From a virus, in IMG/VR virus record IMGVR_UViG_3300045988_056969, positions 46,751 through 110,750 of that record: a DNA stretch of 64,000 bases; one strand, given 5' to 3'. Made by a program: the position numbers and the translations under genes. This document shows positions 309 through 51,614 of the stretch, piece after piece. Position 1 is the stretch's first letter. Each line of letters begins with the position of its first letter. The notes below the pieces were generated by a model. The model saw only the letters and a list, made by a program, of their open reading frames with translations, ran no database searches and had not been told where the DNA came from.

Positions 309-1589
309 TCATAGTTATAGTAATAAGTACCGTTCCCAAGTTTTTGGATTGTCTAAGGATAAACGTCCATTTGTATTCTATTCGGCTCTAACATAAGGTG
401 TTATTTTAAAATTTATAGGAAATTTGTATCTAAGCAAAGAATAGTGTAATCTCCTATTCTTACTTTTAAAATAGTAGGGTTTATTGTTATACATGAAATG
501 CACTCGAAAATGATTGTCATAATCAATAACCTCTACAATGTGAATATATTTATTATAAAACTTAGATATGTTAACTTCTTTTCCATTCCAGTTAGAGAAT
601 TTCAATCCAGTTAACTCCTCTACCTTTCTCAGCAAGTTCTTAGAGTTGCAAAATTTCATCCATCCAAAATAAGACCTCATTCTTCTATTCAATTCATCTT
701 TATCAATCTTATTCTATTTATATAGATTTATAAGCCTAAACATCCTCATTTTTATAGATTTTCTCAGTAGAACATGAGTATGATAGAATTTATAGCCTAC
801 GAAATTAATACCTCTGCTTTCTACAGGGAATATTTGATAATTAGGCTTCAACTCTAGGTTAAGAACCTGTTTCAAATATAGTTTTATAGATACTAATACA
901 TTTCTCAAATAATTCTTGTCATTACCAAGAATCACAATATCGTCAGCATATCGAAAGTAGTACTTACATTTTAACTCCTCTTTTACCCAGTGGTCAAAAT
1001 ATGTCAGATATAAATTTGCAAAGAATTGTGATAGATAATTTCCAATAGGAACTCCCTTCGCTGAATAAATTATTTCTTTCAACAGTTTTAATAGTTTTTT
1101 ATCCTTTATCTTTCTCTATAACATTTCGTATAAAATGTCGTGAGTTATAGAAGGATAGAATTTTTTTATATCCATTTTCAAGCAATACTTTGTTTCTTCT
1201 GGATGTTTCTATAACACCTTAAACAAATCATACTCTACTTTATGAATACCTCTATTTCGTATAGAGGAATATGTTTGGTCTATAAATATACTAGTCCAAA
1301 TAGGCTCCATAATATTCATTATAGCATGGTGAGTTATTCTATCTGGATAGTATGGAAGTCTAAAGATTAATCTTTCTTTAGGTTCGTATATTATAAAGGT
1401 ACTATATTCAGAGGTTTGATAAATCAAATCCCTTAACTTATCGGATAATTCCTTATTTTCTTTTAATCTATTCTTATCATGCTGCTTGATTCCACATCTA
1501 ATAGACTTATTTCTTCTGGCTTTATCGTCAGCTAGTTCGATGTTATCTTCAGCGTATACTTTCTCGTGCAAATATCCTACACGTTTCAA
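309..1589 (-). CDS. DGR reverse transcriptase; single gene requiring read-through of 4 in-frame TAG codons; real stop TGA at 309-311; start codon uncertain (TTG at 1587-1589)
   Basis: ORF-track fragments 1209-1589, 714-1082 and 378-692 share one frame and are separated only by TAG (plus-strand cta at 1209-1211, 1116-1118, 714-716, 378-380). RT motifs YPDRITHHAIM, FYPSITHDIL, PIGNYLSQFFANLYL (DGR-type I/LGxxxSQ), YADD. Lies next to a TR/VR pair. Confidence 0.8.
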
Positions 1590-1731
1590 TTTTTTATATA
1601 TTTCATCGGAAGCGTTCGAGAATTAACCTACTAACACCCTTCATTCAACACTACGTTATCTTTTGCCTAGAGGCAAGGATATTACTTAGCAAACTAAAAA
1701 AAATAATAAAATGTTTCTAAATATATAATAA

Positions 1732-1827
1732 CTTGACATTGGAATTGGCATTGCTGACGTCATTGTTAGAATTGAAATAGCTGAGACCTGCATTGCTGCC
1801 ATTATTCGCGTTGCTGCCTACTAGCAG
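1732..1827. repeat. DGR template repeat (TR), about 96 bp, non-coding, between RT and target gene
   Basis: Near-identical to 1932-2027 and (as reverse complement) to 29286-29375. Almost all differences fall where TR carries A in the coding sense. Confidence 0.8.
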
Positions 1828-1905
1828 TACTTTTTTGCCAATCAACGGTTTTTAGAAGTAATATCCTACGATTTATCATCTAAATCGATTTTTATATTGT
1901 ATATC

Positions 1906-3723
1906 TTAAGATACTCTATTCAGAGTCCTGAACCCGACATAGGAACCGGCATTGCCGACGCCAGCGCCAGAATAGAAATAGCCGAGACCCGCAAAGCCGC
2001 CATCATTCGCGCCGCCGCCCACCCGCAGCGTGCGAAGCGCTGTGCTGCTTGCGTTGCAGTAATGGTAATCGCAAATATAAGTAGTAGTACTTCCTCCAAC
2101 AGCGGATGGAATTATTTCAGCGGTTTCACCTAAGTCAAATGCCTTAATATAACCATCCGATGCTACTTCGTATCCTGCAACGGTTTTCTCTCCAACTACG
2201 TCTGTAAATTCCGATATGTTAGTAGTTGTATAGACAGTGCTAATCTCATTAGCAGCTGCTCTCACTACAACTACTCCGTCCAGGTTAGTCCAAATGTCTC
2301 CAAACGGATTATCGAATCCTCTCCAGCGAGGTACTTTAAATGTATGAGTTGCTACTGTATTTGTGCCATCTTGAGCTGTACATTCTGGAATAACTAAATC
2401 TTTTACTCCAGTGAAGTTACCAAGTTCATTGCAGTAACCACAAGGTGTAAGTGGATATGTTGCATTATACCCTAACCAACTTGTAGCTGCGTTAGCCCAA
2501 TCTGTAACTCCAGATCCTAAACCTCCTTGATGATATCCATCTGCAATTAACTCTGCATTATATGCAGCCTAAGAATTAAAATTAGCATATTCAATGACAT
2601 AATTCCAGTAGAATATCCATTTGTAATATTCATAGCATAGCAATTCTGAACCAGCATTTGTTGCATATGTTCTCATAGTAGCTCTAGAAATATTAGTTCT
2701 AGGCTTTCCTAAATCACTTCTGAATATATCCTTAGTTTCTAATTCTGTAGTTAGATAATCATCGTAGTTAGCTCTATTTCCTCCACCTCTAAATGCAGTA
2801 GTAGTATTAACTACTGATACAGCTTTTGGAGTTGCGGAGACTGTGGTATCAACTGTACTTCTGTATGCATCTATTAATAGTTCAGGAATTTCTACCCATG
2901 AATCATCAATTTTGACAGTAGAAGTTCTAACCCATCTTTTGTTTCCATCGCTGCCAGATTTTCCATAAAATTTAGGAGTATTAACTCTTACTGTTCCATC
3001 AGTTCCATCTAAGACAGATGGAGTTTCGCCGTCTTCTTTATAAGACCAGTCATCTGGAAACAGATAGTAATTTACTACATCATTGTTTGCTACACAACCT
3101 CTATACGCTGACTGAATAGGAAGAGATTTATGCAACAAAGGATTACCTATTCTAGTAAGTTCCGGAGATGCTACTGTAACATCCCATTCTACTCCATAGG
3201 AATATAAATCCATATTACTATTTAGCTCAGTAACCTACTTATCAAGCTTTTGTTGTGCCTTCTACAATTCTTCCCAAGCCTCATTTAGTGCTGTAAATTG
3301 CTCTTCTAGCTTAGAACTTGAATCTGCCCATTCAGCAGTACCATCTGCTGAGAAAACTAGCATCTATCCAGACGCTCCTCCAGATGGAATATGTTTATTT
3401 CCAGAAGTAGTTGGGTGTACATAATTATTAGCATTATTAGCTATAGTACTTAACTTTTCCTTCTCAGTTTCAGTATAATTGGCTTCAGAAAGTCCCTTTC
3501 CTAACTCCTTATCTACTTTGCCTTCAAGCTCACCCTTAGTAGCTAATTCACTAATATCCTAATGCTCAGTCAAATATCCACTATCATTCTGTAACTAAGA
3601 AGTTTTAGTTGGAATTGCATTAGCTTTGGCATATGTCGTATCTATAACATTTCCAGCACCATCGTAAGTAGCTTTTAAATCGTATGTGGTTTCCCCAACC
3701 TTTATAGATTTGATTGCTGCCAT
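1906..3723 (-). CDS. DGR target protein 1 (tail-fibre/receptor-binding-like, about 605 aa) with C-terminal VR; contains in-frame TAG codons; stop TAA at 1906-1908
   Basis: Frame-0 fragments 1906-2265 and 2569-3213 are joined by TAG (e.g. 2569-2571, 3235-3237, 3262-3264, 3364-3366). ATG at 3721-3723 lies just after an upstream in-frame TAA TAA (3733-3738). N-terminus MAAIKSIKVGETTYDL; Gly/Ala-rich C-terminus covers VR1. Confidence 0.65.
1932..2027. repeat. DGR variable repeat 1 (VR1) in the 3' end of a minus-strand target gene
   Basis: Alignment to TR gives about 25 substitutions, 24 at plus-strand T of TR (coding-sense A to N); one a-to-c change near the end. Confidence 0.8.
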
Positions 3724-3732
3724 ATCATTGTA

Positions 3733-6700
3733 TTATTAAAGTTTCACCAACTACATCGTGATCTATTCTCTCTATGGAAGCAGTTAGGTCCTCAACAGCC
3801 TTCTACAATTCTGCTTTAGTAGCATAGTTCTTGAGAACTTCCTAGTCTACTCCAGAGCCTCCTCCTATACTTCCTCCAACAACTTTTACTGGTTTGGCAG
3901 AACTCTTAAACTGTCCTTCAATATAAATTGTTCCCATATTGTTTAAAATATTAATTGTTCATTTTCTCCATCTACCTCTACACTAGAACCTGGCTATAAA
4001 GCGTCTATCTTTTTCTACAATTCGGCTACGGCCTAGCTAATTAGTTCTTCTACCTCAGCTTTGGTGTAGTATCTCTCTATAAGATATTCGCTCCTAACAT
4101 ATCCAGTATCTTGTAAATCTTTTTCTCCATAGGTGCAATAATAAGTATCTTCTTCAGTCTTACTATTCTCAACTAGGTCATCATAATCAGCTTGTGGTAA
4201 GCATACAAGTTTTGGTACTTCTTCAGTAATAGCAACTTGCTTGCCTCCAGCAAATAGCCTGTTATCTTCTGTGGTAAGTTTAACAGAACTCTCAATAACT
4301 TGCTCAGTTCCTGTTTCCTCAGAAGGTTCTCCAGTTGTTCCCTATTGTACTTCTTTTTCTCCAATTTTCTAAATAGTAATATCAGAAGTTTCTACTGATG
4401 TAGATTTCAAAAGCTCAGTGCTAAATTCTTTAGCAGCAGCAGCCTAATCATCCTGATATTTTTTCTAGGTAACAAATATGAAATCATCATCTCCGGTTTC
4501 AGGAGAGTCTCCCCTTAAACTTTCTTTTGTTACGTAATCTTCGGCTATCTAATCTGATAAATTAGATAATGACTATTGAGTAGCATAAGTAGACTGAGCA
4601 TTTTCCTTAGTAAGAAATTTGTCATCAACCTGCTAAATAGTATAATAAGCCTTAATATCTTCTGTAGTAACGTAGTTTCCAAGTTTTTGCAAACCTTGAA
4701 CTATTTCATCAATCTACTTCTTGGAGTAATAATTTGTAGCAACCCAGGACTGATATTGATTAGTAGTATGATAATTCTAATCCAAATATTCCTTAGTAAT
4801 ATAAACCTTTGCATCATTTGTAACGTCATATACATAGTAATATGTATCAGGCTCTACCGTCCCTTCCTCTACTAACTTTAGATACTCTTCTTCAGTTAAT
4901 GTTACTAAGTTCGGAATATCCGATTCAGTAGCAATCTAATCTTCACCTATAAATAATCCTTCAGACTTAACGTCTACTACTAACTAGCCCTCTCCCTCCA
5001 CTACAGGAGATTTTATCTACCCAACAGTGATGCTTTCTAAGGAGCCATCTCCATCTACCTTAAGAGTTTTATCTAACTCGTCTTGGATAGCCTACTAATC
5101 TTCCTCATATTCTTTCTTTGTAACGAAGACAAAATCATCTCCTTCCATTCCCTCTCCTCTAAGGCTTTCTTTAGTAACGAAAATATCGTTTGTTTCTTCC
5201 TTAGTATAATACTTAGTCAGTGATAGAGCTAAAGAATCGTTAGAGACATAATTAGTAGTTAATTCTTCCAGTGTAGCATAATCTGATAGGCTAGCAATAG
5301 TGTTATCTAAGTCTGTTCTAATCTATACTACAGTAGTATTAAGAGCCTTCTATTTTAATTGCTCTTCTATCTTTTTCCCCCATTCCGCGGATAGGTAAAA
5401 CTAGTTATCGTCTAAGCTATCCTCATATATATAATAATATGTCTCAGCATGAAGATATGGTTTACTTTCATCTATGGGCCTAAAATCGTCTGTAGTATTC
5501 TCAGACCATTCTTTATATTCAGCCTCTGTACAGGTGATTATCTAGATAGATTCATAGGATGCTTTCCATCCTTCCTTGTATTTAATCTTAGACTTATCAA
5601 TCAGCATATAAATATTTCCGTTATCTATGTTAGCAACGGTCATACCTTGATAAGCATACTTCTCTGGAATAGAATAAAGTTCGTCTAAGTTATTAACGAC
5701 TGTTCTATTATCGAGAGGCTTCGGAGTTTCTACGGTTAAAGCGACACCTAAGGTAGCATCACCTGTATATTTAAATGCCATTATTGTGATAGAATAAAGT
5801 TAATTTGATGTGGCAATGCTGAGGAGTAAGTATCTTTCTTAGTCCATACCTTGTAAGTAAATCCATTTATCTACTCGGTAGACGTTTCCCAACCACTTAG
5901 GTCTACATTTAAATATCCAAGTCCTCCATCTACGGTAAATGAATTTAACTATGTGTTACTTCCTGGCAATTTTATAATAGCCTTACCACTTAGTGAAAAT
6001 GTGATAGTTCCAGACGATTGTCCAAAAGGAACTAGCGCCTATTTAATCACACCATCAGTATTACCAGAATACCAAGGATATGTGGCTACTACCTAAGCGG
6101 TAGCGGAAATAGAACCAGCTTCTACTCTCTTATCTGTAACTTCTCCTTTATTATTTATCAAATATTCTCCAGCGGCATAACTCACTGTACCAGAGTGAGT
6201 ATAAGTACCAATAGAATTATATGTATCAGACTCTACAGGAGAACTGTTATAAGTAATAGTTTCTCGTCTGTCAGTTTCTTCTCCAGCATCATTCTTTATA
6301 AATGTAAGTGTAGGAGTTAATAAAGCAGTTCCCACTTCTACTATTTGAGAAGTAAAACTATAATAAAGCTATGGGTATACTAAATCTCTAACTACTGTTG
6401 GAAACAGTAAAGTATCAATAATTTCATTAAAGGGCTTGCCCTTAAGTTTCTCTACTGTAGTCCCTTCAATTACTGTTGAAGTAGTATCATCTGGGAGTTC
6501 CGTCTAATAAGTAGCTATAGTTTCTAAGTTAGTTTGTATATTAGTAATACTTTCAGTATTAGCTTCTACTTTAGTATTTGTCTCTTGTTGTGCTTCCTAA
6601 GTTTTCTATACTTCTTTCTTTGTTTCTTCTAGAGCAGGTTCAAGATTCTTAACATAGATACCTGGAAGGATAATAGAAGAGGTTTCCTCTCCAATCTCCT

Positions 6701-9700
6701 ATTCTATTAAATGAATAGCATTATCTTCCTAAGTAGATAAAATCACCTCTAAGGAATTATTTTCCTTTAGTTCTATAGTTTTGGAATTTTGGAGACTATT
6801 CTTAATCCAATTAAGAATGTTTTTATCAACATCTATATTCTCAATAGCATTGTTCAACTCAACTATAGCTTCATTGATTTTTACTATTTCTTCAGATAGA
6901 TTATTAATTCCTTTTCTATTAGTATCAATTTCTCGCTGTAAATCCTCCTTCAATACAGATATAGAAGTTCTAATATTGCTTATATCGACTTTCAGTTCTT
7001 CTATTGCTTCTGTATTAGATTCATATTCGCTAATAAAGTATAGGGCATAGTCTAGGGCATCCTTCACAGTATTAATGCCTTCTGCAACGTCACTAGTATA
7101 GGTCCATTTTTGTTCTATATACTATACTAGGTCTTTTTGCAGTTCTATGGTTCCACTAATGTTTCCCCACAATAGACTCTACTCATCAGCAATACCTAAG
7201 TTCTTTCTTACTTTAGCTTTTTCTAGTTCTGTCCTATATTCTCCTAAATAGTTATTTCTTAAGAGAGGTATAGGCTCACATTTTATAGGCTTACCCTTTT
7301 TACCACAAGGCACTATATCTGCGTTACTTACCGAAGTGTAAATAGACTGTATCATTCTAGTTTAATAATTGCTATTTAATAAATTCGTGATTATCTAGTC
7401 TTACAGGTAGGTTAATAAAACAAATTAGATTAAGAATATCTTGATAATCTGGTTTATATCCCTTTTTGAGTTTTCTTAGAAAATCCTCATACCTTTTAAT
7501 AGCCTTTCTCTTAAGAGCATCCACAACCTATACGTTTATGTCCATGGTAGTGATTGTCACAGAATCCTCCACAGGTACGGAACATCGCTAGTAATCTTTC
7601 AGCCTCCATGAATTGTTTAAAGCATATTAAATAATCTATAATGTTAAGAGTCATCCATATAAAATCTCGAGCAAATATATCTGCTTCCTAATCTCTAGTT
7701 AGACACTTATTTAGTAAAGCATCAAAGAGTTTCTTACAATAATTAATGTAACACTACTACAAGTTTCCTGTAAAGAAAACATCTACCTTACATTTTTTTA
7801 TAGTAGTTCCTTCTATGTTTCGTTCAAGAACTTCTTTAACTGTACACTCTTCTAGCTTACCTTCTACTTCTTTATATAATTTTTCTCCATCAGTAACATA
7901 GATAGTCTCATAGTATTCCTTGTATTCGTCCGATGAATTTTCATACCATTTCATATTAGGAATAATGATATGGTCTACTACGTAATAACCATCATCCTTG
8001 ACCTTAAACATACACGAGTCTAAGTCTTCTGTATGGTCATTAAGTAGGACATCTATCAGAGTAGCATCGCTTATACTAACTTTGATGATAGTATTCAAGG
8101 TAGCACTCTCACTATACTTATAGGAGTCGTAAGAAGTTACTACCTCTACATCTTCATCAATATACTAGCCATATTCTTTTGAGAAATCTTCTATCAGTAT
8201 TTCCCCATTAATTTGGGTATGTATATCAATACTAAATTCCATATTGCAATAATATTAAGTGTTAGGCCATTGACCGTATTGAGCTGGTGTAGAAAAAGGT
8301 CCCCACTTTCCAGATTGCTTTATACGTCTAGACATAAAAACAGAAGTAAAAGATAAACTAATATCTTGTGGATAGTCAGTCCAGGTATAAGACTATCCAT
8401 CTGGAGTAGGAGGTAATTTATCAATCCCAGAGGAGGGCTGTCCATTCCAGTAGTAGTTATAGTCATAGGCTTTAATAGAGGTTACTTCTGTGGTTTCTCT
8501 CCCGTCAGAATCTATATAGAGAGGATCTCCTTTTTCATTCGTTTTTTGTTTATACTCTATAACTGGTGTTATTCCCTCGGTTCTAGTATATATAGTCTAT
8601 ATAATAGTAGAGACATCACTCGCTACTATTTCATAGATAGTAGTTCCCTATGATTCATCAGCTCCCTAAAAAGTAAATTTAGTTCTTTTCCATATATATG
8701 GATTCTCTTCTGTTGGAAGCTCAAAAGTATCAGACCACTACTTACTTGATAGTTTTATTTCAGATTCATCGGCAGTATTAGCAGGGAGATAATGTATTTT
8801 AATAATAATACTATTAACTGCTTCACTTGAACCGGATAAATCTGATACCTACTTAAATAATTTTTTTAAGTCGTCTTCTACATTTGATTTAGAACCGGAA
8901 GCATTACTTATAATTACTGTCCCATCAGAGATAGGATAAATCTACTACTAATCTTTGTTGTATACAATTGTTCCAGTTGCCATATTAATGTATTTGTCTT
9001 ATTTTGTCATTATATGGATTTCCATCATGAAGCTAAGCCAACTCTATTTCAGTTCTTTTTTCTTCAATATCCATTTGTCTATCTTTATAAGTAGAATCAG
9101 ACTGAGCTTTAAGCCAGTTAACTTTATATTCTAACTGCATCTTCTACTATTCTAATCCCAGTCTCTATTCATCTAAGCTTTCAATCTTTTGCTGAGCTTT
9201 CTATAATTCTTGCTGTAACTACTAAGCCTATTGAGAGGTTTCTTCTAATTTTTCTTGTAGTTGCTGAAGCTGATTATTTTCCTCTTTGCGAACTTGAACA
9301 GCTTTCTTAACCTTATATTTAAGGTCTGTCAGACTCTTAGATGTAAGAGCCTCAAAAATAATATCTGGATCCATCTGTTGACTTTTTACGAACTCTGGAA
9401 TGATTGCTTTTATAGTCTATAGATCTTCCATCACTTCTGAACTAGCAGTAATATGAATATCGTAGTCAGTAACAGTAAAATACTCAGGAAGTGCTGTAAA
9501 TATCTGTTGATATTTATCCCCAAGTATAATAGTTCCAGTTAATCCTTTCTTATAAGTAACTTTAGCCTAATTAAGACTATCTAGTAGTATCTCGCAGGTT
9601 ATTAAATCCATCTGCTAAAAATAGTGCTTAGTTACTATATACGAGTTAGCTACTCCCTACTTAATATTAGTAACTGCATCTCTAGTTTCTATACCGTTAA

Positions 9701-11347
9701 GTCGTTCCCTAAATACTCCAGTTATTGATGATGTAGTTTGTTCTACTGATTGAATAGCTAATTCAATAGCCTATACAGCCTATGCTTTTAAGGTATCATC
9801 AAATCCGTTATATATCTAGTTTGGAGCTTGCTGTCCGTCATTCCTACCTTCTTGGCTTGAGTCTATCCACATGATACCACCTTTTTTATAAGCTAACCAT
9901 TTTTGTACTCGTTCTGGCCATTTAACTCCTAAGTTGGTAGGCAACAGAGACATATCCATAATAACTCCAGCAGTACCACTATTAGCTATTAGATTATCTC
10001 TATAATAGTTTAATAAGTCGTATCTATCCTACAGATGTGCACATTTTAATATAAGAGAATAAGGCTACTAAGAGCGATTTAAGAAATATACTCCATTTAC
10101 CGATAAAGAACAGAAGTTGGGATTATCTTTAGACCTCATAACAGTCTTGTCTAATCCTCTAAGAATATATATCTCTTCTCCTATTCTGATAGTATTGTAT
10201 CTCTACATCACAAAATCATCATCTGTTTCAATCCATTCAACATCATAGACTGGGATTAACTAGAACCTATGAGCACTATATTCATTGTCTGGATAGCCGG
10301 GAATGGTTTCATGATTCTAATCTTCATTTACTACTGTACAAGTATCTCCATATACTCTTCTATAAACAGCAGCTGAATCATCAGCTCGCCATTCATCTTT
10401 TAGTCTTCTTAAATCTTCTCTAGATATTTCTTTGCCATATTTAGCTAAAATCTAACTCTTACTCATCCACTTTCTTACTACAACTCTATATGAGTTCCTT
10501 ACATATGGAGATTCTGGATTTCTATCAACAAATGTATTAAGTGGGTTTAATACCTCTATTTCAATATTAGTTCCAGAAGCCGATGATTTCACTCTAAAGA
10601 ATGTATAACCAGTAATTAATAAGTCTGTTAGTAACTAACGTAACTTAGTAATTAAATCGGTTTCTCTGGATTGCATAATATAATGTACTATATTCTAAGC
10701 TGCAATTTCATATTGAGAAATAAAGGATTGGTCAATATCCTATATAATTTTATCTAACTAAGTCTTTACAGCTTTATCAGTAATATCCTTGCCATCAATA
10801 AACTTAAGAATTGAATTACTTAAATGGTCTTTCAAAAACTTTACTATTCCCTTGGTTATTTCTAGCTATTTTTCTCTTGTTATATTACTGATAGTATCTG
10901 AATCTTTGCAAGAAATTTTCGGAAGTATAGGAGTTCCTAAATATTCTCCAACTAGAGCATCTACGTGTTTCTTTAATAAAGGCGTAAACTCTACCGAAGT
11001 GGGGCTACCTATTCCGAAGTTTTCTTCCAGATAACGGAACTATTCAGGATCTCTTTTACCATTATAATAATTATAAGCTTTCTGTAACTCATACTTATCA
11101 TATACAAGTTCCGCAATAGCCTCGTTTGTCTTGTCTATCAATTCCTTCTCTTTCATAACATAAATTATGTTGTTCTGGAGGAAGTTTAGTAGCGTTATAA
11201 TACTTAACTCTTTGTAACTTCCTACTTCTTAATTCTTCCTTAATAAATGGCAGAAATTCTTCGTCTGGTAAATCTGCTATTATTACTAATGGCATTTCTG
11301 ACCTATCAAAGTTAAAAGAGACTTTATACCCAACTGGGTCTAAACTC
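3733..11347 (-). other. Late virion-structural gene block on the minus strand; genes fragmented by very frequent in-frame TAG; includes coiled-coil fibre-like fragments and a portal-like C-terminal region near 9.0-9.96 kb
   Basis: Only short same-strand ORF fragments (4173-4364, 5542-5781, 6093-6335, 6729-7067, 7757-8098) and none of 60 aa or more between 8.1 and 11.1 kb. Manual translation of 9003-9960 with TAG=Q gives a continuous protein with a portal-like Gln-rich coiled-coil C-terminus. Confidence 0.45.
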
Positions 11348-13711
11348 TCAATATCTAGTCCGCCTATATACTCCATTTTGTACAAGTCCCTCATATATTC
11401 TAGGATCACTTGTTTCAACTCTGTATGGGTCATCATATTCGTTTCTTTGCATATTAAGTTCAGGAGTTTTCTTAGTTGGAATAACTCCAAATCTTTTAAT
11501 TCCTCTCTCGTCGTAATAGTAACCAAAATCTTGGAACTATTCAACTTCTTTCTCCACAAGTACGGGCTGTCTTCCTGATAGCTCTTGGTCTGCTAACTCA
11601 GTCATACCTACAGCGGCTACAATATCATACTTACCCTTATTTTCATCATTATATGCAGTGAACTATTCTAGCATTTCTTCGAACCATATAGTATGGCAAT
11701 AGTCTTCTATAAAGGCGGCTGTTAAATCAGTATGCTATTCGATTATAGTTTTTGTAGCAGGAGTTCCATACTATTTAGTAGTTCCATTTCTAACGTCAGT
11801 TAGAGTAGCTCTTGGGCGCTTCATAAAATAGTTAAGGCATCCTTTTTCTCTAGCCCAAGTAACCATACCCATACGAGTAGCTTCTATATTTATTTTACAA
11901 TTATAATAGCGAGCTAAACACATAGCTATTTTATAGGCTTCTCTGATGTCTCCAGGTCTATCCTTGTACATAGCAACATACTGAGGGTCATTCATACCAA
12001 ACGCACGTTTCTTAATCATTATGCAGAAATCAGACGGGTCTCTGGTTTCCTTAGAAGTCTAATTCGCTCCAATATCAATACCGTCTATACCTGCTACATA
12101 TAAGTCTCGCATCTCTTTATAAACTGGAACTTCAAAATCCTAGCCATTATCTTCTGCCTCCTATCTAAGCTTTTCCATTTGTTCTTTATATAAGTCAGAC
12201 CATATTGGATGCTCTAGAATTTTTACTTTGCCATTGCTGTTAGGAATCCATTTAAAACCATCAATATTATCCTAAGTATGTTTATTATTTTTGTAAAAAT
12301 AATCAATATAACCACATTCGGGTCTTGGGCCAATTTGTTTAAGTCTTATATTAGCTATCTATTCGGCAACTAAAATTTTATTAAACTTATTAACACCTTC
12401 TAGATTAAATGCTTCTTCTGCATTCCAACAACGTTCAGCGCATTTCTTTAGGTAGTCTTCTGGTACAGCTAACAGATTATCTCGCTCCTCCTATAAGAAT
12501 TTCTTATATTCCACAGTATTACATACTCCTCTGTGGTCCATAAATTCTGGATTCAAAGATTGTATAAAGTATGGAATAAAGAATCCACTCTCTATAGTAG
12601 TCCCATCCTAAGTCCAATTATGTCTAAATGGAAGAATCTTATATGCTCTTGGATTATAGTAAATCTTTTTTAAGCCCTCTAGAGGAGCACCCATATCACC
12701 GCCAGTACCTCCAAACAACATTGTTCCACGAGGCATACCTTGAACTTCACAAAGTTCTTGACCTTGTACCACAGCGGTATCAAGTCCAGGCCAGGAACCA
12801 GCTTCATCATATATTAATAAATCTACACGGTCTCCACGAATATTAGATGGTTTAGCTCCGTTAATTGCTACAACCTCAGATTTAAATCCTACGTCTTCAA
12901 ACTAACCATTTATTTTGATTTGTTTACCTGATTTCTTTCTCAAATCCTGGTCAATAAGTCGCAATTTAAAAAATCCTCCTCCAGTACAGGTATTTAAGAA
13001 TGTAAGAGCATTATCAAACTTACTAAAGGTACCCTTAAGGAAGGTATCATTAAAGCAAGTAATCATAACCCTACTTCTTCTAATAACAGAGTACATACGA
13101 GCAGAAAGAGAGGCGTTTATTTCAGAGAATCCAATAGAACGAGCTTTCATTAAAGCTGCGTGCTTGTGTAGCACTCTAGCCATCTATAGATAATGAAAGA
13201 ACATATAATGTGATGCAAAGAATATTGGGAAGTCATTATCAGTACCCTCACCAGAGGCTTTCTGCTAGTCAATAGTAGGTAACTAATAGAAATTTAAGAA
13301 GAAGTAATTATCTCCAGTAATGGTGTATCCATTAACTGTCATTCCATACTTACATCTTCTATATTGCTCTTTCCAAAATTCGTTGTACCGCTTACTATCT
13401 CTAAGGTAGGGACAGTATTGACCAGTTCGTTTATATACTTCCCTAGTCTCGGTAAACCAATCTGGATTAAAGTCCAATCCATGAGTTTCGTCAATAGGTC
13501 TGTATCCAGTTATTTCATAAGATAAGGTAGGGTCAAATACTTCTATTTTATCTCCTATTTTAACATCCCAATAGTCAGAATTTCTGACCCTTTCCTCTCT
13601 TATTTTCTATACTAATTCTCTAGCTTCTTTAGCATCCTCTTTCTATTCTTTTTCTCTTACCTAATCTACAATATTCTATATTTCTTCAGGTAATATCTTT
13701 TTTCTTGGCAT
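11348..13711 (-). CDS. terL: Terminase large subunit (787 codons) with about 25 in-frame TAG codons; stop TGA at 11348-11350
   Basis: Same-frame fragments 11771-12019, 12902-13183 and 13283-13477 are joined by TAG. Walker-B-like VDLLIYDEAGSW; nuclease motif YVAGIDGIDIGAN...DPSDFC; length typical of TerL. Confidence 0.75.
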
Positions 13712-15823
13712 AATTAAAAGTCTCCTGGGTCAAAACCATCCACAGCTCCAGCTCTAACAGTAGATTGTTCAGTAAGTTCTTTCTTAACCTAGTCTTCTAG
13801 TGTTATGAGTTCTTCATGAACTTTGTGAAGAGTAGCCATTTCCTTCATTACTTTTTCAGCCTGGAATACTGGCTTGCCGTTATTATCACGCTCATTTAAA
13901 TCTACAATAGTTTCGAAATAATCAATAAACTAGTCTGCAGCTCTTTTAGCTGCTTCTAGTAATTTTATTGACTTGTTTGAATCTTGTAACGCTCTGTATT
14001 TCCTACAAGCTTCTCTAAATATAGGGTCATTAAATTCTGACTCTGTCAATCCAGAATCACTAATAGCTTCGTCATGTCGTTCATGTTCCGAATACTAACT
14101 GTACGGACTTTTCCAGTCTATAGCTAAATAAATGTAAGATAGTTCTCTAGTAGCTCTATCCTTTTCTGCAGATTTATCCCTCTAGATTAAAGCCTTAAAT
14201 TCCTTAACTAGTAATATCTCTGGTTCATTTATTTCTAGCTATTTAGTTAAAGTGTTATAGTTAAATACATTCATAATCATTAATCATTATCATACACATT
14301 AGATAATCTTATTATTTCTTTTTCATTTTGGAACCGCACTTATTGACTTTCATTTTTGAGCCACAAGCGTCTTTCTTAGCATATTGTTTTCTGTCAGGAA
14401 CCCATTTTCCTCCCTGGAAATTACCCTTATGTCCTTTATTGGCCATAGTTTCCTAATCATTGTATTTATTGATTGATATAGAATCTCTTGAGGCTTCGTC
14501 TCTAGCAGATTTCATATCTTTCTTATACTAAGCTCTTCCTGCCTTAAATTTATCAACTTCATTAGCTTTCTTAGTAACTTTAGTTCCTTTTTGTGCTTTC
14601 TGGCAAGCTTTACAGATTCTACCGCCTTGCTTAAAATATACAAGCTCTTCTCCTTCTGGACATACTCCTTTTAGCTTCTTATAATACTCAAGCTTAGCTC
14701 CAAGCCTAGCCATTACTCCTCCTTGCATTTTCTGCATAAATTCCTGATACTTAGCTTTAATGCCGTCTTCACCTAATTGTTCAGCATAAGCTTGTAAATC
14801 CTGTTCAGACTATATCTGAACTCCCTATGACTGCGCATCCTATATTAAATATGCCACAAACGCTTTTTGTAATTCTTGTTGATTATTCATTGTTCCTCCT
14901 TGTTGAAATTTAGTTGTATGTCCCGGAGATAATGTTAATGGTTTAGCTTCTGATTTTCTAGAATTCCATACATCTCCAAGATAATTAAATAATCTCTATA
15001 ACCCCCTATGTATCCCAAAATCTCCTCCTTGTACTGTATTTCCCATAGTATATCTAATGGTAGAAGGTTGTTTAGGCTTACTTGAAGGCTACTCGGCTCT
15101 TGTCTATTCACTAGCTGGCTAACTGCCTCTTGTAATAGTTGGTATTCCTCTACCCCAAGTAGTTCCTTTTGTTGTAGCAATTAGGTCTGGAGCTTCTATA
15201 CTAATCTAAGTATCTGACTAAGGAATCTGAATGGTAGAAGGTTGTTTAGGCTTACTTGAAGGCTGTCCTAAGTCTGTAGTATATACAGAATTTCCCCACA
15301 TAAACTGTTTTAGTCCTCTCTCTCTAGCAGCCCTAAAAGCTGTCTTAAAATCTTTAACACCTCTTAAATCATCCTAAGCTATTTCAGCAGTAGGAAGAGG
15401 TTCTAATCTTGTGGGTAATGAAGGCATTTCTGGAGCATCAAAATATGCCTCTTGTAACTTAGGCATTTTCTATTGTGCGGTTCTTCTAATAATGTCTGGA
15501 TTAGTTGCCCAAGTCTAATGCAACTACCTCAAGGTTCTCTCATCTAAGTCCGCATCTCCGTAAATAATTTTGATATTACGCATCAATTCAGGGTCAAACT
15601 ACACTTTAGCCATTACTTTTCTACTTTAATTAAATCCTTAGTATTAAACACTGCTTCCTACATAAGTCCGGAATCAGTAAACCATCTACATCTTAATCCT
15701 CGTAATCCTTGGTTATCTTTAAATAAAGCTGCTTCTCTTCTTAGAACAAGCATAACTGGAGAATGCATTACTTTACACTACCGTAAAGTAACACAATCCC
15801 CAGGCTTAAAATAAACTTTTTCA
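13712..15823 (-). other. Additional late genes with in-frame TAG (fragments 14528-14737 zinc-ribbon CxxC..CxxC; 14935-15180)
   Basis: Short minus-strand ORF fragments in several frames; boundaries not resolved. Confidence 0.3.
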
Positions 15824-20287: not shown

Positions 20288-20304
20288 AACTATTAATTTT
20301 GGCG

Positions 20305-20376
20305 TTGCCCTACTAGGATTCGAACCCAGACTAAATGATTTAGAGTCATCTGTGCTGACCATTACACCATAGGGCA
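20305..20376 (-). tRNA. Suppressor tRNA, anticodon CTA (reads UAG); clean cloverleaf; probably Gln-derived
   Basis: Minus-strand TGCCCTA-T-G-GTGT-AATGGTCA-GCAC-A-GATGA-CTCTAAA-TCATT-TAGT-CTGGG-TTCGAAT-CCTAG-TAGGGCA-A. All stems pair. The D-arm is identical to the tRNA-Gln(TTG)-like gene at 34198. Confidence 0.8.
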
Positions 20377-23343: not shown

Positions 23344-23413
23344 TCCCTACTAGTATAATGGATTGCGTCTCCCTTTAAAGGAGAAGATTCTGGTTCAAGT
23401 CCAGAGTAGGGAT
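23344..23413 (+). tRNA. tRNA with anticodon TTA (UUA; would read UAA, and UAG by wobble); ochre-suppressor-like
   Basis: TCCCTAC/GTAGGGA acceptor; anticodon arm TCTCC-CTTTAAA-GGAGA; T-arm TCTGG-TTCAAGT-CCAGA. Confidence 0.6.
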
Positions 23414-23448
23414 CTTCATAGTTATATTATTTGTGATTATTACTTTTC

Positions 23449-47970: not shown

Positions 47971-48211
47971 AGTATAAGAAAAAAGTAGCTTGGTTAAAAG
48001 CAAAGCAAGCATGGTGGGATAAACAAGGAAAAGACTTTCAGGCTGCAACTACCAGACCTGGGTCTATTAAAACTCGATAAATCATGATTGCGTTTATAAT
48101 TGTGTGCATAATGTTTGCCGCGTATATTTATTATGACCCGTATGTAGATATTACAGAGGATAATGTACTACTATGGTATAATAAAAGCGGCAATAGAGAA
48201 TATATTATTCT

Positions 48212-48424
48212 ATGGTCGAGAAAAACTTAATTAAGGCATTTGTTGCCGTTCTATTAATCGTTGTAATTTACAACATCAGCTTATGGTTATTATCCGAATC
48301 ATTGTATGCTGCAAATATCTTGGGGTTGTTACTATTACTAGTGGCAATCCCAAGTTTAGTTTATAGGATATTCAAATATATTAAGAAACATTACTTAAAT
48401 AAGGAAAATGAAGACAATTATTAA
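48212..48424 (+). CDS. Small membrane protein (2 TM)
   Basis: ORF track; hydrophobic. Confidence 0.4.
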   Translation: MVEKNLIKAFVAVLLIVVIYNISLWLLSESLYAANILGLLLLLVAIPSLVYRIFKYIKKHYLNKENEDNY

Positions 48425-49235
48425 GATTTTGTGCGTATTAACTTTAGTGTTTGGCTTATCTAGTTGTGGCTATGAGAGAATTGATGCTGGTTATGAAGGC
48501 ATCAAGGTAAATCTATACGGAGATGGTAAAGGAGTAGACGATGTGTCTCTTGTTACTGGTGCGGTATGGTACAATCCTGTTACTACGGCTGTATATGAAT
48601 ATCCTACATTCGTACAGACTGTGGACTATCCTCCTTTCAGTATTAATGCTAAAGATGGATCATCATTTACTGTAGACCCTACAATTTCTTTGAAGATTGT
48701 TGACGGGAAATCACCAGAAGTATTTAAGAAGTATAGAAAGGAAGATATTGTAGAGGTAATTAACACTACTTTGTATAATTACGTAAAGAATGCTTTTCGC
48801 ATTCAGCTGAATAACTATACTACTGATGAACTAGTAAGTAAACGTGAGGAGTTTGAGAAGTCTATAGAAGATAGACTGTCAAAGGAACTCTTGGCTGAGA
48901 ATTTTCAGCTTGAACAAATGACTTCTGGTCTTCAATATCCACAGACGCTAGTCAATTCTATTGATGCTAAGAATGCTGCAATTCAACAGGCTTTGAAGGC
49001 AGAGAATGAAGTTAAGACTATTGAGGCAGAAGCTAAAAAGAAAGTAGCAGCTGCACAAGGAGAGGCAGAAGCTCTTAAGATTAAGGGTGATGCAGAAGCT
49101 GAATATAATAGAAAGATTTCAGCATCTTTGTCAGTTCTCATAGTTCAGCAGGATATGATTAAGAAGTGGGATGGAAAACTTCCTACTTATGGTCAGGTTC
49201 CCACCTTATTTAAAGATGTAGCTAATAACAAATGA
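48408..49235 (+). CDS. SPFH/band-7 (HflC/prohibitin-like) lipoprotein
   Basis: Lipobox LSSCG; SPFH-like core with a C-terminal Ala/Glu/Lys coiled coil (EAEAKKKVAAAQGEAEALKIKGDAEAE). Confidence 0.55.
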   Translation: MKTIIKILCVLTLVFGLSSCGYERIDAGYEGIKVNLYGDGKGVDDVSLVTGAVWYNPVTTAVYEYPTFVQTVDYPPFSINAKDGSSFTVDPTISLKIVDGKSPEVFKKYRKEDIVEVINTTLYNYVKNAFRIQLNNYTTDELVSKREEFEKSIEDRLSKELLAENFQLEQMTSGLQYPQTLVNSIDAKNAAIQQALKAENEVKTIEAEAKKKVAAAQGEAEALKIKGDAEAEYNRKISASLSVLIVQQDMIKKWDGKLPTYGQVPTLFKDVANNK

Positions 49236-49579
49236 TGTATCTAGTAATATGCACTGTGATGGTAATCATCACGGTGCTTATCTTGAAAGATACCCATGTA
49301 ACCGTTTATTACAATGGGTATAGCAGAAGTGTGGCACTTATAGAAGAAGACTATGACCTTAAAGTTCCAGTGTGGCTAGTTTTAGTAATACTAATCCTAG
49401 GATTTATCCCAGTACTGAACATTATGCTATACACAGTAGGATATTTATTCTATATAGTTCATGCTGTGTGGAATCCAGATAAGTTGTCTGGATATACACA
49501 TAAGTTCAATCTAAGAGGAAATAATTTTCTAACTAGAATAGTGAAGAAGATATGGAAATTCTTAAATGTATGTGTATAA
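49232..49579 (+). CDS. Small membrane protein
   Basis: ORF track; 2 TM helices. Confidence 0.4.
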   Translation: MMYLVICTVMVIITVLILKDTHVTVYYNGYSRSVALIEEDYDLKVPVWLVLVILILGFIPVLNIMLYTVGYLFYIVHAVWNPDKLSGYTHKFNLRGNNFLTRIVKKIWKFLNVCV

Positions 49580-50076
49580 CACTGAAACATCTTAGGCGAA
49601 TACTTAGACATAAGTTTTGGGTAGCTTATTACTGTTTTCAGTTAGGTTTATACAAACAGGGCATCTTGCACGACTTATCTAAATTCGGATGGTATGAGTT
49701 CTCTCGTTCTGTAAAATTTTACGATGATAACACATCTCCCTTAAACAAGGAAAAAGAAATTCTAGGATATTCTAGGTCTTATTTACATCACAGAGGAAGA
49801 AATCCACACCATTATGAATACTGGGTAACTAAGCTAGACATTGGCGGTGTTCCAGTGAAGATGCCTAAAGAGTATGCTCTAGAATTGGTATGCGATTATC
49901 TGGCTGCTGGTAAAGTATACAACGGTAATAGTTTTCAAGGAGAATATAACTGGTGGATTAAGTATATAAATTCTCCTAGGGCTATCCATCCAGAAACGAA
50001 GGAATTTATCACTCAGTGTTTTAAGAATTTAGCTAGTGGTAAAGGCATGAAAAGTTTATTAACAATTAGTTATTAA
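49552..50076 (+). CDS. Hypothetical protein with HD-like His/Asp motifs (LHDLSKF...HHRGRNPHH)
   Basis: ORF track; motif-level resemblance only. Confidence 0.3.
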   Translation: MEILKCMCITLKHLRRILRHKFWVAYYCFQLGLYKQGILHDLSKFGWYEFSRSVKFYDDNTSPLNKEKEILGYSRSYLHHRGRNPHHYEYWVTKLDIGGVPVKMPKEYALELVCDYLAAGKVYNGNSFQGEYNWWIKYINSPRAIHPETKEFITQCFKNLASGKGMKSLLTISY

Positions 50077-50089
50077 AATAATTTTTAGA

Positions 50090-50839
50090 ATGGAAATAAT
50101 TAATGCTACAGATGGTTACAAGTTGGGCCATCACAGAATGTACCCCGAAGGTACTGAACAAGTTTATAGTAACTGGACTCCTAGAAGTAATAAATACTTC
50201 CCAGAAGCAACCGAAGGTTCAGTAGTATTTGGTATTCAATACCTAATCAAAGAATATCTCATTAAACAGTTTGAGAAAAACTTCTTTAATCTACCAAAGA
50301 AGGAAGCTGTGGAGATGTTCTATCGTAGAGTAAACAACTTTGTTGGTATTGAATCCGTTGGGTACAGACATATTGAAGCTTTATATGACCTTGGGTATCT
50401 ACCAATTCGCATAAAGGCTCTTCCTGAAGGTTCTGTGTGCCCTATTCGGGTTCCCATGATGACCATTACAAATACTCTACCCGAGTTCTTTTGGTTAACT
50501 AACTACTTAGAGACTATTATCAGCTGTACCTTGTGGATGCCATGCACATCTGCTACTAGAGCTAGGCTTTATAAGAAAGAGCTACATCGTCATGCTTGCA
50601 AGACTGGTTTTCCAACAGATGTAAATCTTGGTTTTTGTTGTCATGATTTCTCAATGCGAGGTATGGCGGGAATGGAAGCCGCAATTATATCTGGTATGGC
50701 GCATATGACTTCTTTTGTGGGAAGTGAAACTATTCCAGCTATTGCTGCTTTGGAAGAATATTATGGAGCTAATTCAGACTATGAAATCTTAAAATATGTA
50801 GTAGATGAAATTAAACTTAATCAACAAGGAAATCAGTGA
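50090..50839 (+). CDS. Nicotinamide phosphoribosyltransferase (NAMPT/NadV)-like, N-terminal half only (249 aa): truncated, or frameshifted against the next ORF
   Basis: NATDGYKLGHHRMYP (ATDSYKVTHYKQYP), ...EFFWLTNYLETI..., HDFSMRGMAGMEAA...EEYYG collinear with NAMPT residues 1-245; ORF ends inside the Prs-like gene start. Confidence 0.55.
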   Translation: MEIINATDGYKLGHHRMYPEGTEQVYSNWTPRSNKYFPEATEGSVVFGIQYLIKEYLIKQFEKNFFNLPKKEAVEMFYRRVNNFVGIESVGYRHIEALYDLGYLPIRIKALPEGSVCPIRVPMMTITNTLPEFFWLTNYLETIISCTLWMPCTSATRARLYKKELHRHACKTGFPTDVNLGFCCHDFSMRGMAGMEAAIISGMAHMTSFVGSETIPAIAALEEYYGANSDYEILKYVVDEIKLNQQGNQ

Positions 50840-51614
50840 AATTAAGTACGATGTTACTAGATTTCCTGATGGAGAGCCTCAGTTTTTCCTTACTGAGGAA
50901 TTAAACAGAAAGGAATCTATTGATGTCATTTGTAGAATATCTAATACTGAGGATTTATTCCTCTTAGTGCAAGTAGGAGATATTTTAGATAGACAAGAAG
51001 TAGAATGGGATTTACACATTACTTATTTAATGTCTATGCGTATGGATAGAGTAATGAGTTTTAATCGTCCATTCTCCTTGAAAGTAGTATGTAATATGTT
51101 AAATAGCTTAGGCTATAGAAACATATATGTTCTTGAGGCACATTCTAGTAGAACTTTTCATCTTCTTGGTGACAGATGTTTACCTTGGGAATTTGGACAC
51201 CACTCTTGGATTCCAGCCCAAAGTAATATCGTGTTCCCAGACCATGGGGCGAAGGACAGATATGGAAGTAACTATTCTCACTATGGTTATTTAGTCTTCA
51301 AAAAGGAAAGAAATCTAGAGACTGGAAGAATTGAGTCCTTTGAAATAGAGGAGTCTAAGAATTGCTACTATTCTACATTTGTGTTCATTGATGACTTGTG
51401 TGATGCCGGAGGAACTTTCCTAGGAGAGCTTAAGGTTCTCAAAGAGAGATATCCAAATAGCAAGTTTATCATAATCGTATGTCACGCAGTTAATGATAAA
51501 GGTCTGATTAATATGTGTAATAATTTTGACCAGGTTATTGTATCTAATTCTCATAGGGATATTAATTATCGTCCCAGCAACGAGAACTTAACTGTAATAG
51601 ACGTTTGTAAATAA
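50805..51614 (+). CDS. Ribose-phosphate pyrophosphokinase (Prs)-family protein; could be an ADP-ribose pyrophosphokinase of a phage NAD-reconstitution pathway
   Basis: RFPDGE (RFSDGE), LHITYLMSMRMDR (PYFGYARQDR), FIDDLCDAGGTF (VDDMIDTGGT). Confidence 0.65.
   Translation: MKLNLINKEISEIKYDVTRFPDGEPQFFLTEELNRKESIDVICRISNTEDLFLLVQVGDILDRQEVEWDLHITYLMSMRMDRVMSFNRPFSLKVVCNMLNSLGYRNIYVLEAHSSRTFHLLGDRCLPWEFGHHSWIPAQSNIVFPDHGAKDRYGSNYSHYGYLVFKKERNLETGRIESFEIEESKNCYYSTFVFIDDLCDAGGTFLGELKVLKERYPNSKFIIIVCHAVNDKGLINMCNNFDQVIVSNSHRDINYRPSNENLTVIDVCK

Follow-up and report, generated by a model that had tools for sequence, protein, structure and literature searches.

NARP1 counters bacterial defences that deplete NAD+ (Osterman et al., bioRxiv 10.1101/2024.02.11.579819). 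Of its two enzymes, the Prs-like Adps turns ADP-ribose and ATP into ADPR-PP, and the Nampt-like Namat joins ADPR-PP to nicotinamide to give NAD+ (bioRxiv 10.1101/2024.02.11.579819). The system is described from phages Bas63, SpbetaL1, Fado and ICP1, with structures available (PMC12774641, PMC13586617). A variant in Vibrio phage Gary, NARP1-AP, comprises Adps, the Macro-domain phosphatase Adpp, and Namat (bioRxiv 10.64898/2026.01.28.702374). Two other phage pathways, NARP2 (Nampt plus Nmnat, phage KVP40) and NARP3 (PnuC plus NadR, Bas30; PMC13464706), likewise restore NAD+ against depletion-based immunity.

The locus considered here lies in a 64-kb stretch of viral DNA (the window, meaning the whole stretch that was analysed), which is part of a genome of perhaps 100-190 kb. 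The window belongs to a crAss-like phage. Its nearest annotated relatives are Crassvirales of the family Steigviridae (cr126_1, cr85_1), with Bacteroides phage DAC15 also among the close matches, all of them distant at about 68% nucleotide identity. Like NARP1 in the four phages named above, the locus has a Prs-like and a Nampt-like gene as neighbours in a lytic phage; the Prs-like partner distinguishes it from NARP2 and NARP3, whose partners are Nmnat, NadR and PnuC. We conclude that a crAss-like gut phage here very probably carries a NARP1 anti-defence operon that a recent deletion has inactivated. Since crAss-like members of NARP1 are already catalogued, the window holds an inactivated member of a known pathway.

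Identity of the Adps gene and the Namat remnant

The initial annotation had described a NAMPT-like and a Prs-like gene overlapping by 35 nt in different frames. The coordinates, the overlap and the families were all borne out, with homology far above chance. The first ORF (50090-50839, plus strand, 249 aa, stop TGA) matches PHROG 448 "nicotinamide phosphoribosyl transferase" (E 3.9e-87, at profile positions 15-242 of 500 only) and Pfam NAMPT_N (2.9e-10). The second ORF encodes a complete Prs-like protein and matches PHROG 619 "ribose-phosphate pyrophosphokinase" over its full length (E 2.3e-51); its Pfam phosphoribosyltransferase-domain matches are all sub-threshold. The features of the locus are collected in Table 1.

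Table 1. Features of the Namat/Adps locus, in window coordinates.
Feature	Position	Strand	Evidence
Namat remnant, codons 1-230 of 516	50090..50779	+	PHROG 448 match, identity to intact alleles
Deletion junction	50779..50780	no strand	Base-by-base comparison with L008
HAD-type phosphatase tail, last 19 codons and TGA stop	50780..50839	+	C-terminus match in L008 and P0121
Adps (Prs-like ADP-ribose pyrophosphokinase), intact, 269 aa	50805..51614	+	PHROG 619

The Prs-like protein carries the marks of Adps. When ICP1 Adps is aligned with the proteins of the window, cr126_1, cr85_1 and one Felixounavirus, all nine columns of interest are invariant: R87, H121, D161, K185, D212 and D213 (acceptor or catalytic residues) and C215, D216 and F221 (PP-loop), as assigned by mutagenesis or structure of ICP1 Adps and in its numbering. 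The Adps-type loop is present as DDLCDAGGTF, and the protein is 45% identical to its cr126_1 counterpart (E 1e-65). All NCBIfam Prs models, on the other hand, score far under their cut-offs (58 bits at best vs 113 required), the equivalog models among them reaching 15-48 bits vs cut-offs of 296-536, and Prs chains in the PDB match at 19-34 bits only. A hallmark of Adps is the loss of the C-terminal alpha11-alpha12 regulatory module of PRPS; here the comparison is of length alone, 269 aa vs about 315-320 aa for PRPS chains in the PDB. As judged from these scores, window Adps is a Prs-like fold outside the canonical ribose-phosphate diphosphokinase families.

The Nampt-like fragment points the same way. 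Its best PDB match is SpbetaL1 Namat (9W5X) at 232 bits, vs 135 bits for human NAMPT; an intact allele of the gene from a close relative (locus L008, discussed below) scores 489 bits vs SpbetaL1 Namat and 228 bits vs human NAMPT. The fragment is 70% identical to the corresponding cr126_1 protein and retains the selectivity-clamp loop (TPRSNKYF), in which Namat has Arg, Lys or Tyr as the third residue, followed by a stacking residue; here these are K35, at the position of R40 in SpbetaL1 Namat, and Y36. The published Namat-specific motif of the clamp helix, GSX-Phi-X-Phi-X-Phi-TRD, is fitted by the intact allele (residues 416-426, GSYSYQYASRD) in a part that is deleted from the window ORF.

The initial annotation had proposed either classical NAD+ salvage or the Adps/Namat pair. 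The link to an NAD+ module stands, and of its two forms the evidence favours the second. In classical salvage, NAMPT would make NMN from the PRPP supplied by a true PRPP synthetase. Pfam, PHROG and NCBIfam do name the families NAMPT/NAPRTase and ribose-phosphate pyrophosphokinase, and purified Namat accepts PRPP in vitro too. Such a reading is nevertheless improbable given the failure of the Prs-like protein against every curated Prs cut-off, its Adps-type loop and conserved Adps residues, and the aromatic clamp motif of the intact Namat, which scores twice as high vs Namat as vs NAMPT. In addition, the NARP1 paper counts crAss-like proteins among its Adps and Namat homologues: the orthologues of cr126_1, DAC15 and DAC17 appear in its supplementary tables, flagged "Yes" or "Adps-associated". 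These sequence signatures and the published phylogeny tables together place the pair in NARP1. The truncation would in any case kill NARP1 and classical salvage alike.

What the remnant has lost can be stated residue by residue. It keeps the N-terminal domain, F187 (the F189 equivalent) and E213 (the D215 equivalent; the position is Glu in the crAss-like lineage, unlike in characterised Namat), and it is without His243 of PATEHS, Arg305 (the R306 equivalent), the clamp helix and most of the barrel. We take His243 to be the catalytic His, equivalent to human His247; the His of HDFSMRG, also considered for this role, was dropped, as the catalytic His sits in PATEHS. The Namat core (equivalents of F189, D215, R306 and the catalytic His) is thus incomplete in the window, which keeps only residues 1-230 of Namat. 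In Namat, R306G or R306A alone abolishes NAD+ synthesis and anti-defence activity. The window is without the R306 equivalent and 285 further Namat residues, and from the effects of the R306 mutants the remnant is predicted to be inactive in NAD+ synthesis from ADPR-PP and nicotinamide. A second Namat copy in the part of the genome outside the window is unlikely, the gene being essentially single-copy across phage records (2,010 matching places in 2,008 records).

A 1,228-bp deletion through Namat and a phosphatase gene

In intact relatives the order of genes is Namat (516 aa), a HAD-type phosphatase (145 aa) and Adps. Ten loci with an identical Adps protein were examined, and in 9 of them the 145-aa gene comes after a Namat that runs uninterrupted for 509-516 aa. 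Blastn blocks were compared between the window and 13 related loci; among these, L004, L008 and L012 match it at 98-99.7% identity on either side of the junction (L008 99.7% to its left and 99.3% to its right). The window is colinear with the intact alleles up to 50779 and then jumps by 1,228 nt. Base-by-base comparison with L008 maps the breakpoint to 50779/50780 (...AATTCAGAC/TATGAAATC...), with L008 4748-5975 missing. The breakpoint ends share no exact microhomology, only an imperfect match of GAGGAA to TATGAA (4 of 6).

The deletion removes Namat codons 231-516 and the first 126 phosphatase codons, and fuses Namat 1-230 in frame to the last 19 phosphatase codons. The Nampt-like frame continues into the frame of the middle gene because the frames of the two lost genes differ and 1,228 is 3n+1. 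The Nampt-like stretch, first put at about 245 residues, is therefore residues 1-230, and the remaining 19 residues of the 249-aa ORF, YEILKYVVDEIKLNQQGNQ, belong to another gene: they match the C-terminal end of the middle-gene product of L008 and P0121. The 35-nt overlap, by which the Adps start precedes the end of the remnant ORF, is likewise native, being that between the middle gene and Adps in intact phages (L008 5598-6035 vs 6001-6810).

Fusion, frameshift, a split gene and decay had all been suggested as the origin of the truncation. Fusion and decay both apply, as the deletion joined Namat codon 230 to the tail of the lost middle gene. A frameshift is ruled out by the colinearity to 50779, the jump of 1,228 nt and the absence of the C-terminal coding sequence in every frame; tblastn with full-length homologues (E up to 1) finds no Nampt-like C-terminal half in the 64-kb window. 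Recoding of a stop codon was also considered. Among the 21 tRNA genes of the window are suppressors (anticodons CTA and TTA). Reading TAG as sense opens seven long minus-strand ORFs between 315 and 15625, so the late genes are clearly TAG-recoded. The Namat/Adps locus lies in a plus-strand block with the standard code, the stop of the chimeric ORF is TGA, and the sequence downstream of it is that of Adps, so recoding is ruled out as well. The truncation is a clean 1,228-bp deletion, not a frameshift, recoded stop, split gene or assembly error.

Chimeras can arise in metagenome assemblies of mixed strains, and the nearest entry in GenBank, MT836666.1, carries an UNVERIFIED flag and rearrangements of its own. 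An assembly or sequencing artefact that hides an intact Namat in the real phage is even so extremely unlikely. The junction evidence is the agreement among independent assemblies rather than reads: the same junction and the exact 249-aa chimeric protein occur on 8 contigs from different pipelines (SPAdes/ENA, JGI, Logan) and different samples, and three independent assemblies (L014, L015, L016) share the junction and show 100% identity to the window across 7 kb. As a control, a search was run with the 424-aa helicase encoded next to the locus; its 120 best matches included 115 of full length, so these assemblies do not generally produce internal deletions as artefacts.

The allele is rare. The frequencies rest on Adps-selected loci and exact junction scans, since a protein search with the 249-aa ORF lists targets of up to 432 aa and so passes over intact 516-aa proteins. 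A scan of IMG/VR for the exact 30-nt junction found 0 contigs with the window junction and 21 with the intact one, and public assemblies have 3,450 index blocks with the same Adps protein sequence. It is also young. Both the 690-nt remnant and the 810-nt Adps gene show 0 nucleotide differences from intact alleles (the remnant is 100% identical to those of L008, L004, L012, L019 and L026), which indicates a recent deletion.

The middle gene, of which the window keeps just the last 19 codons, gives the intact operon three genes, like NARP1-AP of phage Gary, in which a small phosphatase-like gene also stands either between the core enzymes or next to them. (Its former presence between the pair could not be deduced from the letters of the window alone.) The order here is Namat, phosphatase, Adps, whereas the Prs-like gene comes first in Felixounavirus bumzen, ICP1 and, according to the NARP1 paper, Bas63. 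The 145-aa product has a HAD fold and no Pfam match, and is not a Macro-domain ADPR-1''-phosphate phosphatase as in NARP1-AP. It is an uncharacterised NARP1 accessory, distinct from Adpp. By analogy with Adpp, it may extend NARP1 to a phosphorylated ADP-ribose substrate.

Recurrent loss of the module and split Namat in relatives

Deletions of the module recur in this lineage. Among 38 loci chosen solely by Adps presence (10 plus 28 from IMG/VR), three others have lost part of the Namat region: L011 (1,563 nt), L044 (689 nt) and L024 (the 5' part). None of the 38 shows a deletion within the 4-6 kb that follow downstream, and one has a deletion in an upstream accessory gene. Protein searches yield more alleles, some with internal Namat deletions, some with Namat fused to the tail of the middle gene at other points or to the C-terminal part of Adps, and some in which the upstream AAA ATPase is fused to the middle gene and Namat is gone. 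About 20 distinct deletion alleles of the module are found in the same lineage.

Selection for the truncated arrangement, with the orphan Adps or the Namat N-fragment taking a stand-alone role (as an ADP-ribose drain or a decoy), might be proposed from the way the deletion leaves the Adps gene, the native overlap and the stop-start coupling unharmed, and from the spread of the allele over several samples. We consider this highly improbable. Some alleles of the lineage have Adps destroyed as well (for example P0007, P0008, P0010 and P0013), a pattern that speaks for a dispensable module lost without selection and not for selection of an orphan Adps. The allele is found on 8 contigs vs several thousand Adps index blocks (in IMG/VR, 0 vs 21 intact), and, as no substitution has accrued since the deletion, selection has had no time to show.

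A truly split Namat does occur in related crAss-like phages. In three more distant lineages (L047/L048, L070/L071 and L072) the protein is encoded by two ORFs, an N-half of 279-290 aa, at whose end ...PATEHSV is followed by a conserved tail of about 33 aa, and a C-half of 260-292 aa. Between the halves lies an ORF of 165-217 aa related to endonuclease VII/HNH (PHROG 1035, E down to 5.5e-22), the three copies of which are 46-65% identical to one another. The insertion replaces the equivalent of L008 4787-4827, and the window breakpoint lies 39 nt upstream of its left edge. An Rfam scan found no group I intron in L047 6500-7800. A split intein was considered, as the tail after PATEHSV starts A-C-S, which is intein-like, and was rejected by inspection: the C-half has about 17 extra residues, too few for a C-intein. 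A literature search returned nothing relevant on a crAss-specific or endonuclease-split NAMPT.

Free-standing homing endonucleases are known to create genes in pieces, for example the split nrdA of phage Aeh1 with mobE. The arrangement in L047, L070 and L072 is similar, with an endonuclease ORF inside Namat right after the catalytic-His motif. The window differs from genes in pieces of the Aeh1 type in having neither the endonuclease nor the C-terminal piece; by tblastn, the Namat C-half and the L047 endonuclease have no match in it.

The natural N-halves do show that an N-terminal piece of similar size can exist as a separate polypeptide, and one could suppose that the window fragment works with a C-fragment encoded elsewhere in the genome or by a co-infecting phage. 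That the window holds such a functionally split gene is very unlikely. Besides the missing C-terminal half and endonuclease gene, the remnant ends 15 codons before the natural split point and so is without PATEHS, it is without the conserved tail of about 33 aa, and it is identical to the unsplit allele up to the breakpoint. The suggestion of a split gene thus fails for the window itself, and the deletion stands as the source of the truncation.

The split alleles may still bear on where deletions start. Of 17 truncated or deleted alleles with mapped left ends, a sample biased by its collection, 8 have them within codons 225-245, a stretch that lies just upstream of the insertion site; this suggests that endonuclease cleavage of endonuclease-free alleles seeds deletions. 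Tentatively, and at rather long odds, a mobile endonuclease VII/HNH-like gene could target Namat of crAss-like phages directly after the catalytic-His codon, so that successful invasion would give split Namat (as in L047, L070 and L072) and failed repair of the cut in endonuclease-free genomes would give null deletions such as that of the window. If true, a selfish element, not host pressure, would drive the recurrent loss of an anti-defence function in an abundant human-gut phage.

A probable natural knockout of NARP1

The proposed course of events is as follows. In the intact form, Adps would pyrophosphorylate ADP-ribose using ATP to give ADPR-PP, and Namat would join ADPR-PP to nicotinamide, restoring the NAD+ cleaved by bacterial defence. 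Illegitimate recombination would then have deleted the 1,228 bp, leaving a chimera of 249 aa that lacks the catalytic histidine, the essential arginine and the adenine-clamp helix. The phage would thereafter be unable to reconstitute NAD+ by NARP1, and the case for this inactivation, as read from the sequence, is strong. Adps is probably still made, because the native translational overlap is preserved; alone it would yield only ADPR-PP, a dead-end intermediate. The allele would persist as the module is presumably dispensable on hosts without NAD+-depleting defences.

As a dead copy of a described anti-defence pathway, the locus is itself of modest importance, and what goes beyond the ordinary is limited to the decay at population level, the endonuclease-split relatives and the HAD accessory gene. 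The roughly 20 independent deletion alleles, the split Namat and the HAD phosphatase are leads that can be taken up in cultured Bacteroides phages such as DAC15. The allele also amounts to a natural knockout, in that an abundant uncultured gut phage exists with and without a working NARP1 in an otherwise identical background, and metagenomic time series could test whether NAD+ reconstitution pays in the human gut.

Deletion alleles and split Namat genes

The Namat, HAD and Adps module has about 20 distinct deletion alleles within the window's phage lineage, a count drawn from proteins P0001-P0028, P0109, P0110 and P0124-P0160 and from loci L001, L011, L024 and L044. Among truncated or deleted alleles, 17 left ends have been mapped, and 8 of these fall within Namat codons 225-245, in a sample biased by the way it was collected. 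This cluster lies just upstream of the site at which, in three related lineages, an insert carrying an endonuclease VII/HNH-like gene splits Namat into two ORFs (L047, L070 and L072), the break falling directly after the catalytic-His motif PATEHSV. The N-halves of the split lineages share a conserved extra tail of ~33 aa; an Rfam scan of L047 6500-7800 for a group I intron detected none. The closest GenBank record, MT836666.1 (flagged UNVERIFIED), is itself rearranged, with an in-frame fusion of a truncated AAA ATPase to Namat, an internal C-terminal deletion in Namat, and a broken HAD gene.

Coordinates of features in the window and in related loci (L-numbers)
Feature	Sequence	Coordinates	Strand	Remarks
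Split-Namat region	L047	6001-8366
Split-Namat region	L070	5001-7315
Split-Namat region	L072	5001-7240
Rearranged region	MT836666.1 (L001)	3485-5627
NadE-bearing segment	L047	8368-9258
NadE-bearing segment	L048	4202-5089
Cassette 1	window	48084-50076		SPFH/Band_7 protein + 174-aa DUF5662
Cassette 2	L005	2743-4066		170-aa DUF5662 + 272-aa AAA ATPase
DUF5662 gene	window	49552-50076	+	Pfam E 5e-29; adjoins Namat on upstream side
Long ORFs (TAG as sense)	window	315-15625	-	seven
Suppressor tRNAs (anticodons CTA and TTA)	window	20304-20376; 23344-23414	-; +	CTA reads TAG, TTA reads TAA

TAG recoding in the window

Reading TAG as a sense codon opens the seven long ORFs to 435-793 aa; under the standard code none of the seven exceeds 400 aa. 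Two suppressor tRNAs are among the window's 21 tRNA genes, which are spread over 20 to 43 kb. Together, the ORFs and suppressors represent late-gene TAG recoding, as known from crAss-like phages.

Genes surrounding Namat

Two alternative cassettes occur upstream of Namat among otherwise near-identical genomes, their DUF5662 genes being about 68% identical in nucleotide sequence; in the AAA variant, the ATPase gene separates DUF5662 from Namat. Judged by its His/Asp-rich motifs (HDLSKF, HHRGRNPHHYEYW), the window's DUF5662 protein looks like a metal-dependent hydrolase, and its gene may belong to the same module as Namat. In one split-Namat lineage (L047/L048), the HAD gene is separated from the Namat C-half by a gene for NAD synthase (NadE, Pfam E 3e-38), giving a larger NAD-related gene cluster.
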